The position numbers and the translations under genes were made by a program. A stretch of DNA of 64,000 nt from Eledone cirrhosa (Eukaryota): the NCBI GenBank assembly GCA_964016885.1, contig CAXHJY010000193.1, positions 5,893-69,892 of the forward strand, read 5' to 3'. A model generated the notes under the pieces. It was not told the DNA's origin. It was given only the letters and a program-made list of their open reading frames with translations, and did no database searches. Positions 1,966 to 41,690 of this stretch are shown piece by piece; within the stretch, counting starts at the first letter, position 1; each line of letters begins with the position of its first letter.

Positions 1966-1968
<3 letters not shown>
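121..1968 (+). mobile_element. 5'-truncated non-LTR retrotransposon (LINE family A, APE-RT type; CR1/Proto2-like, clade unresolved)
   Basis: RT ORF followed by a short 3' UTR and a TTCAAAG-like tandem tail. Both ends abut TA/TATG microsatellite. Confidence 0.93.
126..1880 (+). pseudogene. LINE ORF2 fragment: endonuclease C-terminus fused to a complete reverse transcriptase and C-terminal domain
   Basis: Motifs PTRxxNVLDL, NYRPISLTS, QHGFR, YLDFSKAFDRVDH, GVPQGTVLGPLLF, FADD, RDLGV, YSLQRRRERY. Lacks the EN N-terminus and the EN-RT linker. Confidence 0.9.
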
Positions 1969-6204
<4,236 letters not shown>

Positions 6205-6214
6205 AGAAAAGAAA

Positions 6215-6982
6215 TTGAGAAAAGAAATTGAGAAGGCGTATGTCCTCATAGCGCCTCATATGGCGATGCTAAGCCGTGTCCTCAGGGAGGAGAAAACCGA
6301 AGGGAGGGATGAGGAGAAGGAGAGGGAAAAGGAAGAGGAAAAAGAAAAGGAGGAGAGCACAAGCACGGACCTGAAAGAAAATGATATACCCTCCGCTACA
6401 AGCAGGGAGGGCAGGCCGGGCAACCAACAAGCTAAGGGCAAAGGTGAAAAGCGAAATCACCTTCCGAAGGAGAACCAAGCGCAGAGGGACCAGTGGACAA
6501 TTGTTCAAAGAAAGAACAGAAAGCACCGAGACACTGGGAGCAAAAAACCCCAAGTAATGTGCAAGTTTTTCAAGAACGGGACATGCTGGCATGGAGAGAC
6601 AGGGATGGGATGCAGATTCGCCCACCCTAGGTCTCAAACGAACTATGCCCATCATACTCGCGCAACATGCCCCAGCCAAAGCCGAAATAAGCCGCTCCAG
6701 AAGTATGCTGATGTCGCGCGTGCTGCACCAACAAGGAGAAGGCACGCACATGCCGACGAGATACAGATGGCAGCAGCAGATCAGAAAAATTTTTTAGTGA
6801 TGGCAGAGAAGATTGTGGGACAGCTGACCTGGCTGCATCGTCTCCAGAGCCAGGGTCATCCACACCAGCACTCGAGACCACCGCAGTTAAGGGACCCAGA
6901 GTGGCCGCCGCTGACACCAGACCAGGTGTCATACCGACAGCCATTACTGGCACCCCAAAAGTCACACCATTGCTGCTGCTGA
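6215..6982 (+). CDS. LINE ORF1 protein (partial) with charged tract and CCCH zinc finger
   Basis: [22 protein letters not shown] = C-x7-C-x8-C-x3-H. Lies upstream of and overlaps ORF2. First in-frame ATG at 6260. Confidence 0.75.
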
Positions 6983-9942
6983 ATGTCAGGGGCCTGGTGA
7001 AACTCAGCAACATGAGTAAAATTTCCTACCTGGGAGACTTAGCCATAAGCAATCAAGCACTATGCATGGCACTAACCGAAACGCACCTGACAAGCAGTAT
7101 AGCAGATGCAGAAATACATATACCGAAATATACTGTATTTCGTTCGGACAGGAAGGAGAGAACTCATGGTGGGGTTGCTCTGTATATCCGTGAAGATGTC
7201 ACACCAATTGTACTGTTGACACATTCAAACTCAGTCTGTGACACACTGATAATACATATGAAGCAACTACAGACGGTAATATGTGTCACATATCGGCTGC
7301 CCGATGCCCCCAGTCATGAGGGTAAATTTGAGGATAGCCTAAGTAGGATAGAAGAGGTCCTTGACAAACTGGACCAGGGTCTCAACATCCTACTGCTGGG
7401 AGACTTCAACCTACCAAACGTCAAATGGCCTGAGGGCCACCTCCTCCCTGGAATGACGTCAATAGAACAGAGACAGACGGAATCCCTGCTGGCCCTCACA
7501 CACAGGCTGTTCATGGAGCAAGCAATACTCCTCCCAACAAGAGGCGAAAATGTCCTGGACCTCTGTTTTACAAACAACGAAGTGCTCATCCACAATGTAA
7601 AGGTGACACCAACAATTCTCTCGGATCATAACTTGGTAGAGCTAATGATATGTGGTCCAAGAGAACCAACAGAGACAAAACCACCAAGAAGCTCCGGGAC
7701 GCTATCCAGCCTTAACTTCTACGGGGCTGACTGGAAGAGGATTAAGAGTGAAATCCGGAAGCAAACATGGAGTGCAAACATCGCCACAAAAGACACTAAC
7801 ACACAATTTCAACACTTCATGACAACGATACACACCATATGCAAAAAGTGTGTCCCGGAGAAAGAGGCAAACAGACACAAAAATCTTATTCCCAGAGATA
7901 GGAAAATCCTTATGAGACGTAGAACTAAACTCTCAAACCAGTTGAATAGTCAACAAAACCAAAACAAGAAGGAATCCTATTTGAAACGTGCACTACTTGA
8001 CACCGAGATTGCACTCAAGCTTTCACATGAGAATGAGAGGGCAAGGAAAGAGAACAGGGCCATAGAAAACATTAAAACAAACCCTAAGGCCTTCTTTAAA
8101 TTTGCAAAAGAAACTGCCTCAGTACACTGCAAGATTGGACCACTCTTCCACACGGACGGTTCATTAACCGAAAATCCCCAAGAGATATGTGAAATACTGA
8201 ACGAACAGTACAAAAGTGTCTTCACATGTCCACTGAGGCACATGCAAATAACGAAGCCAGAGGAGTTCTTTGATGCCACAACACTACATCAAGAAATGGC
8301 AACCATCAACCACATAGACATAACGGAGGAGGATGTGGTGTACGCCATTGATGAAATTAGAACAGACTCGGCTGCTGGACCTGATGGATTCCCAGCAGTT
8401 CTCCTAAAAATATGTAAGCGGGCCTTAGCAACTCCACTGAAGATGCTCTTCAGAAGCTCCTTGGCTAGCGGTGTACTACCCAGGGAGCTGAAAGAAGGCA
8501 CAATATGCCCTATCCATAAAGGAGGTAGTAGAGCGGAGGCCAAGAACTATAGGCCAGTCTCCCTGACGTCGCATATCAGTAAGGTCATGGAGCGAGTCGT
8601 CAGAAAGAAACTAATCACTTTCCTCGAAGAAAATGACCGCCTGACTAGCACGCAACATGGCTTCCGCCCAGGAAGAAGCTGCCTTACACAGCTGCTACAT
8701 CACTACGACTGGGTACTGAGACAGCTACTAGACAGCTCACATGTAGACGTGATATATCTTGACTTTGCGAAGGCCTTTGACAAGGTCGACCACGGAATGA
8801 TATGTCACAAACTACACGGACTCGGCATAACTGGAAAAGTAGGTGAGTGGCTGCATGGCTTCCTGAGGGACAGAAGCCAGGCAGTCGCAGCAAATGGGGC
8901 CCTCTCGAGGGAAACACCGATAACAAGTGGGGTGCCTCAGGGGACAGTCCTGGGACCACTACTGTTTTTGGTGGCTCTCTCGGACATGCCCTCTGTGGTG
9001 CATGCAACAACATCCCTCACTAGCTATGCTGATGACACTAAGGTAGCACAGGCAATCAAAAACCCGGCTGACGCTGCCCTCTTACAGCAGGATCTGGATG
9101 CCATATACAGATGGGCGGAAGAAAACAACATGCAGTTTAATGCTGGCAAATTCCAAGCCCTACAATACAAACCTGCAAACACAAACACAAATATAGCGGA
9201 ACACAGCTACACAGGACCAGGAGGGACCGATATCCCCGTGTCAAAATCGATACGAGACCTGGGCATAGACATGAGCGATGATGCATCTTTTTCTTCACAC
9301 ATCATGAAGGTGGCGACAGCATGTAGACGATTCGCTGGCTGGATCTTGAGGACTTTCCTTACAAGAGATCGAGACACCATGTTGACACTGTGGAGGACTT
9401 TTGTCCTAAGCCGCCTGGACTACTGCTCCCAGCTGTGGTCACCCCATAGTGTCGGACTAACCACAGAGCTTGAGGCAATCCAGCGAAGCTACACCAAGAG
9501 GATTGCCGAGATGAGGGAGACAAGCTACTGGGAGAGGCTGAAGGAACTGAACCTCTACTCCTTGGAGCGAAGACGGGAGAGATACGCAGTGATCTACATG
9601 TGGAAAATCCTGGAGGGACTAGCACCAAACTTTGGCATTGGGAGCTGGACCAACCGTCGAACAGGACGTCACTGTGTGGTGCCAAAGGTCCCGTCTTCCA
9701 CATCTAGAATAAGGAGCAGGTATTGCAATAGCCTGGGATTCAAGGGCCCTCAACTCTTCAACAGGCTGCCGAGGCATCTGCGAGACTTGCATGACGTGGA
9801 GGTGGATGTCTTTAAGAAACATCTCGACACCTTGTTATCCAGGATCCCGGATGAGCCCACAGCAAGACACGAGGGAAACCTAAGGGCAGCAGCAACAAAC
9901 TCCCTCCTACACCAGTGGCCAACCTATACAGGCTGGAGATAA
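6901..9942 (+). CDS. LINE ORF2: AP-like endonuclease + reverse transcriptase (frame is open from 6712; first ATG at 7012)
   Basis: EN motifs LNVRGL, LTETHL, GGVALY, GDFN, PTR, LDL, SDH. RT motifs QHGFRPGRSC, YLDFAKAFDKVDH, GVPQGTVLGPLLF, YADD, RDLGI. No internal stops. Confidence 0.95.
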   Translation: MAAADTRPGVIPTAITGTPKVTPLLLLNVRGLVKLSNMSKISYLGDLAISNQALCMALTETHLTSSIADAEIHIPKYTVFRSDRKERTHGGVALYIREDVTPIVLLTHSNSVCDTLIIHMKQLQTVICVTYRLPDAPSHEGKFEDSLSRIEEVLDKLDQGLNILLLGDFNLPNVKWPEGHLLPGMTSIEQRQTESLLALTHRLFMEQAILLPTRGENVLDLCFTNNEVLIHNVKVTPTILSDHNLVELMICGPREPTETKPPRSSGTLSSLNFYGADWKRIKSEIRKQTWSANIATKDTNTQFQHFMTTIHTICKKCVPEKEANRHKNLIPRDRKILMRRRTKLSNQLNSQQNQNKKESYLKRALLDTEIALKLSHENERARKENRAIENIKTNPKAFFKFAKETASVHCKIGPLFHTDGSLTENPQEICEILNEQYKSVFTCPLRHMQITKPEEFFDATTLHQEMATINHIDITEEDVVYAIDEIRTDSAAGPDGFPAVLLKICKRALATPLKMLFRSSLASGVLPRELKEGTICPIHKGGSRAEAKNYRPVSLTSHISKVMERVVRKKLITFLEENDRLTSTQHGFRPGRSCLTQLLHHYDWVLRQLLDSSHVDVIYLDFAKAFDKVDHGMICHKLHGLGITGKVGEWLHGFLRDRSQAVAANGALSRETPITSGVPQGTVLGPLLFLVALSDMPSVVHATTSLTSYADDTKVAQAIKNPADAALLQQDLDAIYRWAEENNMQFNAGKFQALQYKPANTNTNIAEHSYTGPGGTDIPVSKSIRDLGIDMSDDASFSSHIMKVATACRRFAGWILRTFLTRDRDTMLTLWRTFVLSRLDYCSQLWSPHSVGLTTELEAIQRSYTKRIAEMRETSYWERLKELNLYSLERRRERYAVIYMWKILEGLAPNFGIGSWTNRRTGRHCVVPKVPSSTSRIRSRYCNSLGFKGPQLFNRLPRHLRDLHDVEVDVFKKHLDTLLSRIPDEPTARHEGNLRAAATNSLLHQWPTYTGWR

Positions 9943-10148
9943 AATGTGTAACAACAAGGGCGGTGCCCCAGCATGGCCTCAGCCGGATGGCTGAAACAGG
10001 TAAAAGAGTAAAAGAGTAAAAGAGTATATGTATATACATACATATATACATACATACATATATATATATATACATACATATATACATACATATATACATA
10101 CATACATACATATATACATACATACATATATATATATACATACATATA

Positions 10149-10950: not shown

Positions 10951-11657
10951 ATATACATACATATATATGTATGTATATATGTATGTGTATGTATATATGT
11001 ATGTGTATGTATATATATAGGTGTATGTATATATATAGGTGTATGTATATATATATAGGTGTATGTATATATATATAGGTGCATGTATATATATATATAT
11101 GTGTATGTATATATATATATAGGTGTATGTATATATATATATATAGGTGTATGTATATATATATATAGGTGTATGTATATATATATATAGGTGTATGTAT
11201 ATATATATATATAGGTGTATGTATATATATATATAGGTGTATGTATATATATATATATAGGTGTATGTATATATATATAGGTGTATGTATATATATATAT
11301 AGGTGTATGTATATATATATAGGTGTATGTATATATATATAGGTGTATGTATATATATATAGGTGTATGTATATATATAGGTGTATGTGTATATATGTGT
11401 ATGTATATATATATATGTGTATGTATATATATGTATGTATATATATATGTATATATGTATGTATGTATGTATATATATGTGTATGTATATATATATATGT
11501 ATATATACATATATGTTTATATATATATATGTGTATATATATATGTATATATATATATATATATATGTGTATATATATATGTATATATATATGTGTATAT
11601 ATATATGTGTATATATATATGTGTATATATATATGTGTATATGTATATGTGTATATA

Positions 11658-11708
<51 letters not shown>

Positions 11709-11720
11709 GTATATATATAT
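10951..11720. repeat. Compound TA microsatellite with (TA)nGGTGTATG higher-order unit
   Basis: Directly visible. Confidence 0.95.
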
Positions 11721-11721
11721 G

Positions 11722-12011
11722 TAACTTTGAACTTTGAACTTTGAAATGTTTTGGCCAGTATTGGCCCAGGCCATGTCTAACTTAATAGCACCACCTGGCG
11801 AAGTCTTTCAATTCAGGATTTGGGCACCATGGCCCATTCGAGAAGAGAATTACTGTTTGCGGAGACATATCCGGGTGTGGGTGGTTTGTCCGGGATTACT
11901 TGGAGGAATTTGTCCAAAGATTTCTTGAATTTTGTGTGGTCAGTTTCTGTTTTGACGTGTCCTGGGGTGATGTTGAAGAGAGCAGGGCCGATTGAGGTGA
12001 AATAATTGTGC
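11722..12011 (-). mobile_element. Short 3' copy of LINE family A
   Basis: Reverse complement matches 1682-1960 with about 3 substitutions seen by eye, plus a (TTCAAAG)x3 tail. Flanked by TA repeats. Confidence 0.95.
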
Positions 12012-12019
12012 AAAAGTAG

Positions 12020-12041
12020 TATGTATATATATATGTATGTA

Positions 12042-12074
<33 letters not shown>

Positions 12075-12509
12075 ATATATATGTGTATATATATATGTAT
12101 GTATATATATATGTGTATATATATATGTATATATATATGTATGTATATATATATATATGTATATATATATGTATGTATATATATATGTATGTATATATAT
12201 ATGTATGTATATATATATATATGTATATATATATGTATGTATATATATATATGTATGTATATATGTATGTATATATATATATATGTATATATATATGTAT
12301 GTATATATATATATGTATATATATATGTATGTATATATATATATATGTATATATATATGTATGTATATATATATATATGTATATATATATGTATGTATAT
12401 ATATATATATGTATATATATATGTATGTATATATATATGTATGTATATATATATATATGTATATATATATGTATGTATATATATATATATATGTATATAT
12501 ATATGTATG

Positions 12510-12540
<31 letters not shown>

Positions 12541-12593
12541 GTATGTATATATATATGTATGTATATATATATGTATGTATATATATATGTATG

Positions 12594-12625
<32 letters not shown>

Positions 12626-12703
12626 TGTATATATATATGTATGTATATATATATGTATATATATATGTATGTATATATATATATATGTATATATATATGT
12701 ATG

Positions 12704-12734
<31 letters not shown>

Positions 12735-12995
12735 GTATATATATATGTATGTATATATATATATATGTATATATATATGTATGTATATATATATGTATGT
12801 ATATATATATATATGTATATATATATGTATGTATATATATATGTATATATATATGTATGTATATATATATATATGTATATATATATGTATGTATATATAT
12901 ATGTATATATATATGTATATATATATGTATGTATATATATATATATGTATATATATATGTATGTATATATATATATATGTATATATATATGTATG

Positions 12996-13045
<50 letters not shown>

Positions 13046-13095
13046 TATATGTATGTATATATGTATGTATGTATATATGTATGTATATATGTATG

Positions 13096-13126
<31 letters not shown>

Positions 13127-13613
13127 ATATGTATGTATATATGTATGTATGTATATATGTATGTATATATGTATATATGTATATATATATGTATGTATAT
13201 ATGTATGTATATGTATGTATGTATATATGTATGTAGGTATGTATGTATGTATATATATGTATGTAGGTATGTATGTATGTATATATATGTATGTATGTAT
13301 ATATATATATGTATGTATATATATATATATATGTATGTATATATATATATGTATGTGTATATATATATGTATGTGTATATATGTATGTGTATATATATAT
13401 GTATGTGTATATATATATATGTATGTGTATATATATATATGTATGTGTATATATATATGTATGTGTATATATGTATGTGTATATATGTATGTGTATATAT
13501 ATGTATGTGTATATATATGTATGTATATATATATGTATGTATATATATATGTATGTATATATGTATATATATGTATGTATATATATATGTATGTATATAT
13601 GTATGTATATATG

Positions 13614-13644
<31 letters not shown>

Positions 13645-13695
13645 GTATATATATATGTATATATATATATGTATATATATATGTATATATATATG

Positions 13696-13728
<33 letters not shown>

Positions 13729-13879
13729 GTATATATATATGTATATATATATGTATGTGTATGTATATGTATGTATGTGTATGTATATGTATGTATGTAT
13801 ATATGTATGTATGTATGTATATGTATGTATGTATGTATGTATGTATATGTATGTATGTATGTATATATATGTATGTATG

Positions 13880-13932
<53 letters not shown>
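12020..13932. repeat. (TA)n/(TATG)n microsatellite
   Basis: Directly visible. Confidence 0.97.
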
Positions 13933-31055: not shown

Positions 31056-32430
31056 TAACCACCACTACTATTGGTACTACCTCTACTACTACTACTACTT
31101 CCACCATTACTAACTACTATTACTACTACTCCAGCTAATACTACTACTACTACTTCCACCATTATTAACTACTACTACTACTCCTACTACTACTACTACT
31201 GTCACCACTAATTACCATAACCACCACCACTACAGCTATTACTATCACCACTAACCACCACTATCACTACTATTATCACCACTAACCACCACTACTACTA
31301 TCACCACTACCACCACCACCACTACTACCACCACCACTACCACCACCACCACTACTACTACTACTACAATAGAGAAGGCAGACCTTTACTGTGATCAGCT
31401 AAAATAGCAAGAAGAAAGAATTGATTGTTCTATTAATAGAATCATATTTGAAAACAGTGATTTATTTTATTATTATTATTATTATTAACATTATCAATAT
31501 TATTATTATTGTAGAACTGTAGTTAGTGAGGATGGTTAGTGTGTTGGTAGAAATGTATCGAAGTATTTTAGTTCTAGTCCCCAGCTCTACAGTTTGATTT
31601 GATTTCGAATCCCATTGAAGTAGGCTTTGCTTTTCATTCATCGATGGCTGGGTAACATAAAGTAAAGCCTCCAGTGGGGGGAAATGCCTTCTCTATTCTG
31701 TCCACCGGGGCCGCGGGGCAGGACGGAAGTACCAGTCAATTATTGGTGTTGATGTAATCCACTTCCTACCCCCCGATTCCCTCCTCCATAAATAGCTGGT
31801 CTTGTCCCTTAATCAGGAATCATTGATGTACCAGTCAATTCTTTCTCTTTCTCACTCCCTCTCTCTCTCACTTTCTATCCTTCTCTAGAAGAAATCTGCT
31901 GTGTTCACATCTGGAGAGGGATGGGCTCTGCCAGGCTTAAAAATGCCTAAGAAACACCATATGCCAAAATGGAACCCCTACGACTCCATGCCATGCCAAA
32001 GAACTGGGTTGATTTAATCACCCCCCCCCCCCATATTTCTGGCCTTGTACCTTAATTACAAATCCTTATTATTGTAGGGAATTGGCTTGGCAGAACCATT
32101 AGTACTTTGCAGTATTGGTCCTGGTTTTAAATCCTGCCGAGGTCAACTCAGACTTTTGTCCTTTAAGGGGTGTGGGGAGTGGTGGTGATAAAATAAAGTA
32201 TCAGTTACATACTGGGGTTGATATATAAGATGAGTTAGATTGGGTGTTACAGTATGGAAGTAGACAGGTCAGATGGCTGTCATGCTCATTATAACAGGAG
32301 TGTGGAGAGGTTAATTCATTTAACACTTTTGTGATCATATTTCTAACAAGAATATATTCTGTCTTTGTGTTTTAATTATGAAAATAATTAAAAATTATGA
32401 AACATTTACAGAAATAACTTTCAACTTAAT

Positions 32431-34206: not shown

Positions 34207-34370
34207 GACAATTTATTCTTACAAAATGATCAATTTTGTGAGCAGCTACCATAGTGAAACAACATGGTAATTTGTAAGAATAAATTATGTTAAATAAACA
34301 TACATTCACTTCAATATGATTGAGTACTCATTTCAAATGAAATCATTCTCCCTTACTCCCATAATAATAA

Positions 34371-34587
34371 TGGCTTCTGATTTAGGCACAAGACCAGCAA
34401 TTTTGGGGAGGGAAAAGTCGATTAAATCGACTCCAGTGTGTGACTGGTACTTTATTTTATCAAACCCTGTAAGGATGAAAGGCAAAGCTAACCTCGGTGG
34501 ATTTCAACTCAGAACGTAAAGGGCCGTGACTCTATGCTACAAAGCATGGTGTCCGACACTCAATCAACACTGATAACCCACTGCCCT
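34371..34587 (-). mobile_element. tRNA-derived SINE
   Basis: Reverse complement of the family consensus, including GGATGAAAGGCAAAG and GACTGGTACTTTATTTTATC. Confidence 0.75.
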
Positions 34588-36984: not shown

Positions 36985-37215
36985 TAGAGGCTGTGAAATG
37001 GCTGGGTTGTTGGAGCATCGGACAAAATACTTTGCTGTATTTGTTCTGACTCTTTATATTCTCAGTTCAAATTCTACAGAGGTCAACTTTGCCTTTCATC
37101 CTTTCGGTGTTGAAGTAACAAAGTACCAGTCAACTACTGGGGTTGATATGATTGACTCCCCTCAACCTCCAAAAATTGCTGGCCTTTTGCCAAAATTAGA
37201 AGCTATTATTATTAT
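36985..37215 (+). mobile_element. tRNA-derived SINE
   Basis: AGTTCAAATTC B-box, GAGGTCAACTTTGCCTTTCATCCTTTCGG core, GCTGGCCTT..AGAA end and (ATT)n tail. Confidence 0.7.
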
Positions 37216-38679: not shown

Positions 38680-38859
38680 TATGTTTGATGTAGGTGGCCA
38701 AAGAGATGAAAGAAGGAAGTGGATTCAATGTTTTAATGATGTCACTGCCATAATATTTGTCACTGCATGTAGCAGTTATAATCTGGTACTAAGAGAAGAT
38801 AACACCCAAAATAGACTTAAAGAATCTTTAGAATTGTTTCAAAGTATTTGGAATAATAG
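38680..38859 (+). CDS. GNAS: Gs-alpha exon (switch II/III): [59 protein letters not shown](R)
   Basis: CACAG acceptor, GTGAGC donor, 180 nt. DVGGQ G3 motif. Confidence 0.97.
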
Positions 38860-39420: not shown

Positions 39421-39614
39421 GGGCGGTGAATTGGTAGTATCGGTAGAGGGTCGGACGCCATGCTTTGCAGCAAAGAGTTACGGCCCTTTATGGTCTGAGT
39501 TCAAATCCCGCCGAGGTTAATTTTGCCTTTCATCCCTTACGGGGTCGATAAAATAAAGTACCAGTAATACACTGGGATAATTGCTGGCCTTGTGCCAAAA
39601 GTAGAAACAATTAT
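39421..39614 (+). mobile_element. tRNA-derived SINE with a Meta-domain-like core
   Basis: A-box TGGTAGTATCGG, B-box GAGTTCAAATCC, core TTTGCCTTTCATCCTTACGGGGTCGATAAAATAAAGTACCAG. The resemblance to the MetaSINE domain is from memory. Confidence 0.8.
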
Positions 39615-39686
39615 GTATATATATATATATATAATTAATAAACACACATATATATATCCTTATCCTTCTATTTTTCCCTTTCCTAG

Positions 39687-39817
39687 ATGGTTGAGAAGTA
39701 TCTCAGTAATTCTATTCTTGAATAAACAAGATTTATTGGCTGAGAAAGTGAAAGCTGGAAAGTCAAAAATCGAAACATATTTTGCTGATTTTGATCGTTA
39801 CATAACCCCTGTAGATG
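39687..39817 (+). CDS. GNAS: Gs-alpha exon: [43 protein letters not shown](A)
   Basis: CCTAG acceptor, GTAAGC donor, 131 nt. NKQD G4 motif. Confidence 0.96.
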
Positions 39818-40543
39818 GTAAGCAATCTATTATTTTACATAACCCCTGTAGATGGTAAGCAATCTATTATTTTACATAACCCCTGTAGATGGTAAGCAAT
39901 CTATTATTTTACATAACCCCTGTAGATGGTAAGCAATCTATTATTTTACATAACCCCTGTAGATGGTAAGCAATCTATTATTTTACATAACCCCTGTAGA
40001 TGGTAAGCAATCTATTATTTTACATAACCCCTGTAGATGGTAAGCAATCTATTATTTTACATAACCCCTGTAGATGGTAAGCAATCTATTATTTTACATA
40101 ACCCCTGTAGATGGTAAGCAATCTATTATTTTACATAACCCCTGTAGATGGTAAGCAATCTATTATTTTACATAACCCCTGTAGATGGTAAGCAATCTAT
40201 TATTTTACATAACCCCTGTAGATGGTAAGCAATCTATTATTTTACATAACCCCTTGTAGATGGTAAGCAATCTATTATTTTACATAACCCCTGTAGATGG
40301 TAAGCAATCTATTATTTTACATAACCCCTGTAGATGGTAAGCAATCTATTATTTTACATAACCCCTGTAGATGGTAAGCAATCTATTATTTTACATAACC
40401 CCTGTAGATGGTAAGCAATCTATTATTTTACATAACCCCTGTAGATGGTAAGCAATCTATTATTTTACATAACCCCTGTAGATGGTAAGCAATCTATTAT
40501 TTTACATAACCCCTGTAGATGGTAAGCAATCTATTATTTTACA
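39798..40543 (+). repeat. 37-bp minisatellite x20 spanning the exon/intron junction (TTACATAACCCCTGTAGATG|GTAAGCAATCTATTATT)
   Basis: CATAAC at 39801 and 40505 are 19x37+1 apart. Copies look identical except for one extra T near 40254. Confidence 0.97.
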
Positions 40544-40789
40544 GTCATTTTATCTCCTTTTTCTACGATCTGTGAATAATATTCTAAAGGGTCTCTACCT
40601 TAACTCATGATTAATACAGAAGACATGTCATGGATTGAACCTGGGAGGGCCACATGATGGCAATGTGAATGTTTTAACCACACTGTTATGTTGTTGTTTT
40701 TTCTGTTTATTTTTTGTTTTGTTAGGAAGGAAGGGACAGTACCCATGACCTGTGCTGTAGCCATAATCTTCATAGGACCCATGACCTTA

Positions 40790-41690
40790 GTACCCACGAC
40801 CTTCTCACTACCCACGACCTTCTCACTACCCACGACCTTCTCACTACCCACGACCTTCTCACTACCCACAACCTTCTCACTACCCACAACCTTCTCACTA
40901 CCCACGACCTTCTCAATACCCCCGATCTTCTCACTACCCACGACTTTCTCAATACCCCCGATCTTCTCACTACCCACAACCTTCTCACTACCCACAACCT
41001 TCTCACTACCCACGACCTTCTCACTACCCACGACCTTCTCATTACCCACAACCTTCTCACTACCCACGACCTTCTCACTACCCACAACCTTCTCACTACC
41101 CACAACCTTCTCACTACCCACGACCTTCTCACTACCCACAACCTTCTCAATACCCCCGATCTTCTCACTACCCACAACCTTCTCATTACCCACAACCTTC
41201 TCACTACCCACGACCTTCTCACTACCCACGACCTTCTCACTACCCACAACCTTCTCACTACCCACAACCTTCTCACTACCCACGGCCTTCTCACTACCCA
41301 CGGCCTTCTCACTACCCACAACCTTCTCACTACCCACGACCTTCTCAATACCCCCGATCTTCTCACTATCCACGACCTTCTCACTACCCACAACCTTCTC
41401 ATTACCCACAACCTTCTCAATACCCACAACCTTCTCACTACCCACGACCTTCTCACTACCCACGACCTTCTCACTACCCACAACCTTCTCACTACCCACA
41501 ACCTTCTCACTACCCACGACCTTCTCAATACCCCCGATCTTCTCACTACCCACGACCTTCTCACTACCCACAACCTTCTCATTACCCACAACCTTCTCAT
41601 TACCCACAACCTTCTCATTACCCACAACCTTCTCACTACCCACGACCTTCTCAATACCCCCGATCTTGTCACTATACACGACCTTCACAC
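40790..41690. repeat. 18-bp minisatellite (ACCTTCTCACTACCCAC[G/A]), ~49 copies with degenerate flanks from ~40740 to ~41900
   Basis: Directly visible; variant unit CCTTCTCAATACCCCCGAT is interspersed. Confidence 0.95.

Follow-up and report, generated by a model that had tools for sequence, protein, structure and literature searches.

Minisatellites that span an exon/intron boundary and reiterate its 5' splice site have been described in several genes. The closest case is the intron 7 VNTR of human F7, which has a 37-bp unit, a first unit lying across the junction, and splicing from the most upstream donor alone (Borensztajn et al. 2006, PMC1557585). In minigenes, the F7 splicing pattern stayed the same between 1 and 12 units, and the pseudo-sites were functional once the upstream donors were destroyed (PMC1557585). 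The same report lists CBS intron 13 (15 to 20 units) and IFI6/6-16 intron 2 (25 pseudo-sites), both of which additionally splice from the two nearest pseudo-sites, as well as LMNB2 (10 to 15 units of 100 bp) and PDGFA (16 to 18 units of 81 bp), for which only the authentic site is used. In amphioxus, "mirage" minisatellites of Adh3 and of the globin genes BflGb6 and BflGb9 are reported to leave regular splicing undisturbed (PMC3087553). When two globin donors compete, the intron-proximal site is reported to gain beyond a spacing of about 30 nt and to be chosen about 100% of the time from 45 nt upward (PMC3413131). The initial annotation of the locus described here held that competition between donors is often won by the one closest to the acceptor; this is true of such two-site model substrates but not of the naturally occurring arrays that PMC1557585 lists. 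Nothing on repeated donors was found in passages of PMC10078293, and a search of the open literature yielded a review of human repeats but no published cephalopod case.

We analyzed a window of 64,000 nucleotides from Eledone cirrhosa (GCA_964016885.1; contig CAXHJY010000193.1, positions 5,893 to 69,892). On the forward strand at positions 39798-40543, TRF detected a repeat of period 37 (20.1 copies; 99% matches) with a score of 1483, which puts the array, as a repeat, far beyond chance. The units are of minisatellite size and are arranged head to tail, each being composed of 20 exonic nt (39798-39817 in the first unit) and 17 intronic nt. The authentic exon/intron junction lies inside the first unit, so that the intron carries unaltered copies of its donor. 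The motif GATG/GTAAGC occurs 20 times (last exonic bases at 39817, 39854 ... 40521), and the 19 pseudo-donors extend from 39854 to 40521. Identical sequences were found in 19 of the 20 units; the sole variant, unit 13 (40242-40279; donor region at 40255-40262), has one extra T. The coordinates given in the initial annotation were all correct, as were its 20 donors and its 37-bp unit of about 20 exonic and 17 intronic nt. A donor-spanning 23-mer had 20 occurrences in the 3.0-Gb genome, every one within the array. A dispersed repeat family or a second copy of the gene was rejected, given that this 23-mer and the exon were found nowhere else in the genome. Other minisatellites in the window include one in the same intron at 40791-41696 (18 bp; 50.3 copies; 90% matches), which is strongly C rich on the + strand, and a further 37-bp repeat at 48255-48687 (11.7 copies; 87%), the sequence of which is unrelated to the donor array.

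The host exons encode Gs-alpha. Their best solved-structure matches were Gs/Golf alpha subunits, the C terminus is QYELL as in the GNAS family, and the best of 118 database matches was Gs-alpha of Octopus vulgaris; these structure and protein matches confirm the gene identity first proposed from the sequence. The nearest named proteins are those of O. vulgaris (CAI9737960.1) and O. sinensis (XP_029647399.1). Relative to O. vulgaris Gs-alpha, the identity per exon was 93 to 100% over residues 162 to 377, and the product of the first donor (donor 1) was colinear. The donor 1 junction was also colinear with human Gs-alpha (residues 261-303 and then 307-326 in chain 8zd1). As in octopus Gs-alpha, the NKQD, TCAVDT, and C-terminal QYELL motifs are all intact, and the array causes no change to the protein when donor 1 is used.

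Four exons on the + strand define the consequences of donor choice. An upstream exon of 180 nt (38680-38859; MFDVGGQR...IWNNR; residues 221-280 of human Gs-alpha) was located by protein comparison. The host exon (39687-39817; 131 nt) contains the NKQD motif and ends at the authentic donor, G/GTAAGC, as indicated by frame, protein comparison, and a contig from run X5 (see below). Frame and protein comparison also placed the next exon (42546-42613; 68 nt; AHTEPGDD...DEFL) and the last coding exon (43582-43728; TCAVDT ... RQYELL and the stop). Splicing from donor 1 to 42546 keeps the frame open to the TGA at 43726, and only donor 1 yields an intact Gs-alpha. Donor 2 leads to a TGA in the next exon (42553-42555), which is in frame after donor 2 only and lies 58 nt before the last junction. 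Donors 3 to 20 include the in-frame TAA at 39856-39858 in 18 of 18 cases, and intron retention meets the same stop. As in regulated unproductive splicing (AS-NMD), the alternative donors give premature stops that lie ahead of a junction, and the last coding exon is absent from any product of donors 2 to 20. These frame relationships agree with those originally annotated.

The Gs-alpha exons matched once in the genome, and the gene appears to be single-copy. It is split in the assembly: residues 1 to 127 are on contig C17 (minus strand; 34,261,896-34,307,796), whereas residues 162 to 377 are on the window contig (C220), which is 70 kb long, unplaced, and repeat rich. The exon for residues 128 to 161 was not found in the genome stretches searched. 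C17 has a 200-N gap about 9 kb beyond the Gs-alpha 5' exons, and C220 likely belongs in or near this gap. Kilobase-scale (AT)n-type arrays with strong strand-specific GC skew (1966-6200, 10951-13932, 44159-46617, and 54537-63957) account for about 30% of the window. Positions 6001-10000, with a GC content of up to 44 to 50% and a strong AT skew (0.22 to 0.28), differ from their surroundings and possibly represent a retroelement. Genome contigs C1 to C4 are very large (443, 416, 379, and 379 Mb) beside many contigs of 24 to 135 Mb.

Public sequencing runs were compared with positions 39430-39871 (4 of the 23 listed runs, all as contigs). In run X1, from the same organism and the best match to this region, depths were 109.1, 163.7, 157.9, 155, and 155 in bins from 39805 to 39871. 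Judging from the bin means, such a profile is what two contigs with a common start at 39810 would give, one with a depth of 155 through the units and another with a depth of 8.7 ending at 39839, where the last unit yields to the right flank. The ratio of repeat to flank depth is 17.8 (155 versus 8.7), and the assembly predicts 18.5, although contig depth is no copy number and X1 may come from the very animal used for the assembly. Because of this agreement, we conclude that the array exists in the reads; the possibility raised in the initial annotation, that the 20 copies are an assembly artifact, is contradicted by this depth. The X1 depth suggests a mean of about 19 units over both alleles. 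Positions 39430-39600 correspond to a very high-copy dispersed repeat, probably SINE-like, matched by more than 100,000 contigs in each DNA run and plentiful as well among the RNA-like contigs and those of related organisms; stretches that resemble it by eye are present at about 32130-32220, 34360-34520, and 37050-37200.

Evidence on donor usage came from run X5 (same organism, another sample; 88 million letters; kind unrecorded), which contained one contig of 1,348 nt at a depth of 21.2. This contig matched 39684-39817 with 0 differences and departed from the genome at both ends. Its right end was exactly donor 1 (39817), its left end fit the TAG that is found both at the acceptor and where the upstream exon ends, and the depth was zero in bins 39820-39871. 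The letters outside the match (812 and 402) fit the full coding sequence of 377 codons plus 27 and 187 nt of untranslated region. We read this contig as spliced mRNA leaving by donor 1, with the letters beyond 39817 judged by their fit in length. Mature mRNA thus comes mainly from the most upstream donor, a qualitative result given that it relies on one run, from a sample that may differ in its array genotype, and that contigs drop rare variants and NMD substrates would be depleted. No X5 contig corresponded to an unproductive isoform, though contigs drop rare and degraded forms, and small leakage through donors 2 to 20 may occur. The fallback offered in the initial annotation, namely strong selection of the first among 20 identical donors, fits these data (exit at 39817 and no contig over donors 2 to 20) and matches the behavior of F7.

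Donor sequences and U1 pairing are equal across the units (-8.0 kcal/mol for all 20 donors; -7.2 to -9.5 for the other four donors of the gene), and donor 1 alone has the full exon directly upstream. The first donor may be chosen by exon definition or by 5'-to-3' selection, as proposed for F7; the precedents for such mechanisms are all mammalian or from amphioxus. Any rare product of donors 2 to 20 would have its reading frame closed prematurely, with degradation as the likely fate. No unusual RNA fold was found: the region 39760-39945 was no more stable than shuffled sequences (z, 0.03), and RNA structure masking the downstream donors was rejected on this basis. A 6-bp hairpin (39811-39830 and each later unit; -4.3 kcal/mol) holds the donor in an 8-nt loop; as a discriminator it was also rejected, since units 1 and 2 form it alike and it cannot tell the donors apart.

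To place the array in time, two related organisms were compared. Run X4 (organism B) had a single contig of 302 nt (depth, 17.6) that matched 39674-39837 with 5 differences and continued past 39837 for 99 letters unlike unit 2. Run X7 (organism D) had a single contig of 1,229 nt (depth, 27) that matched 39680-39828 with 9 differences and continued past 39828 for 953 further letters, also unlike unit 2. Depth was elevated in neither run, and unit 2 was left uncovered in both. Both of the relatives compared (contigs; at least 85% likeness) therefore have a single unit, and the conservation that would accompany a functional AS-NMD event was not observed. No common RAD site was present near the array (RAD runs X21 to X23). 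The near-identical units, together with the single unit in both relatives, point to a young array that arose by recent lineage-specific expansion, while homogenization could also keep the units alike.

A likely starting point for the expansion is a 5-bp microhomology. TTACA opens unit 1 within the exon (39798-39802) and follows the last unit within the intron (40539-40543). In the Haber and Louis model, in which minisatellites are born by slippage or unequal crossover, the signature is a unit flanked by short repeats of 5 to 10 bp (PMC6947457). The first duplication likely occurred by such slippage or crossover at TTACA and would have been followed by the recent expansion. A duplication of this shape would spare the exon and the first donor and push every copy into the intron, and we infer that the array is tolerated because the exon and first donor stay intact.

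We estimated how often a donor would fall within a minisatellite unit by a TRF survey of 37 fixed-position 10-kb stretches of large contigs (370 kb). Complex minisatellites were defined by a period of 15 to 100, at least 5 copies, and at least 85% matches, and low-complexity units were dropped. There were 12 such arrays in the 370 kb, 4 of which had at least 10 copies at 95% or more. The probability that a given position is in a first unit was 0.14% (95% interval, 0.07 to 0.25%), or 0.13% without the 2 of the 12 arrays that begin at a stretch edge; for the long near-perfect class it was 0.05% (0.014 to 0.13%). Assuming 100,000 to 200,000 donors (a round figure, uncounted) and arrays that are position independent and tolerated, 140 to 280 donor-in-array cases are expected in all and 50 to 100 in the long near-perfect class. 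A donor sitting in a minisatellite unit somewhere in this genome is thus not beyond chance; the number to be expected runs from tens to hundreds. The 48-bp units of two survey arrays on different large contigs (L047:7805-9998 and L057:8914-9268) are almost alike, which suggests that these arrays belong to a dispersed minisatellite family.

Several other explanations were weighed against these data. The suspicion that the assembler multiplied a single unit is understandable for a window on a 70-kb, unplaced, repeat-rich contig, with the gene split between contigs and with units almost perfectly identical. However, X1 contains the junction between units at a depth 17.8-fold that of the flank, and we see next to no chance of such an artifact. 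A leaky array, in which donors 2 and 3 or farther ones take an appreciable share of splicing and the resulting transcripts meet a premature stop and are degraded, would produce an unselected drop in Gs-alpha in long alleles. This is made plausible by the 20 donors having the same sequence and the same U1 pairing, by the stops at 39856 and 42553 both lying more than 55 nt before a junction, by the use of two pseudo-sites beside the authentic one in CBS and IFI6 (PMC1557585), by the suggested precedent of long CBS alleles lowering output, and by the preference of two-site substrates for the downstream site at such spacing or more (PMC3413131). On the other hand, there was no X5 contig over 39820-39871, pseudo-sites were not used in 50 clones per construct for F7, which has the same period, and about 19 units averaged over both alleles are carried by a viable animal. 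Leakage on an appreciable scale is accordingly unlikely.

The initial annotation had gone further and proposed a selected device, either a rheostat in which the number of units adjusts Gs-alpha by way of splicing and NMD or an array that sequesters U1 snRNP. Dosage could matter for an apparently single-copy Gs-alpha, and every alternative product is unproductive. Neither version was supported, given that the array is absent from the contigs of two related organisms and that such arrays are expected by chance genome-wide; in addition, 1 to 12 units behaved alike in F7 minigenes, and the intron has no AATAAA or ATTAAA for U1 to mask. Nineteen extra sites on a transient pre-mRNA are also negligible compared with the cellular abundance of U1, and selection of either kind is extremely improbable. 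A guard by U1 against early polyadenylation was rejected, there being no AATAAA or ATTAAA in 39800-42546. Each unit also reads TGTAG/ATG/GTAAG, and ATG could in principle be spliced as a 3-nt microexon between donor 1 and 42546, adding one Asp. The AG-ATG-GT arrangement is found in 20 of 20 units, and the insertion would preserve the frame, but the acceptor is weak (70% pyrimidines in the 20 nt before AG versus 75 to 95% at the four true acceptors of the gene), the X5 contig passes the junction without a break (inclusion is not visible in contigs), and the layout is merely that of the exon's own GTA GAT G codons. We give this microexon reservoir an equally slight chance. A recursive-splicing site requires GT immediately after AG and was rejected, since three bases separate AG and GT in each unit. 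A length-variable dial on Gs-alpha that combines a copy-number-dependent NMD share with a bank of 3-nt microexons adding Asp in neurons is very unlikely.

The reading that we consider probable, with good confidence, is that of a 37-bp boundary repeat spliced from its first donor, with 19 further copies as near-silent passengers and with an origin by slippage at TTACA followed by recent expansion. The repeat is likely near-neutral and, as it stands, matters little. It has a modest use as a natural experiment on how donors are chosen beyond the chordates, with 20 identical donors, 19 of them unproductive, in a highly conserved gene, and it might serve as a marker for genotyping. Should downstream donors be used according to copy number, the array would provide heritable dosage control on cAMP signaling, for which the CBS VNTR is a partial precedent.

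The array is one more exon/intron-boundary minisatellite, a class known from human and amphioxus genes. With F7, it shares the 37-bp period, the boundary-spanning first unit, the identical donors repeated into the intron, and splicing from the most upstream donor. The two differ in size (5 to 9 units with 4 exonic nt in F7; 20 units with 20 exonic nt here) and in evidence, the F7 repeat being polymorphic and tested in minigenes and the octopod array being known from one individual's data; they are in different genes and phyla and are of independent origin. The minisatellites of CBS, IFI6, LMNB2, and PDGFA reiterate a donor 10 to 25 times, and their copy numbers are like that observed here. In CBS and IFI6, the two closest pseudo-sites take part in splicing as well, whereas LMNB2 and PDGFA rely on the authentic site alone; at a low level, either pattern may apply here. 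The amphioxus mirages are likewise invertebrate tandem duplications of exon/intron boundaries and are unstable in length (PMC3087553). They have units of 10 to 160 bp with 81 to 100% identity and occur on both donor and acceptor sides, whereas the array described here is a near-perfect, donor-side array in a mollusc.
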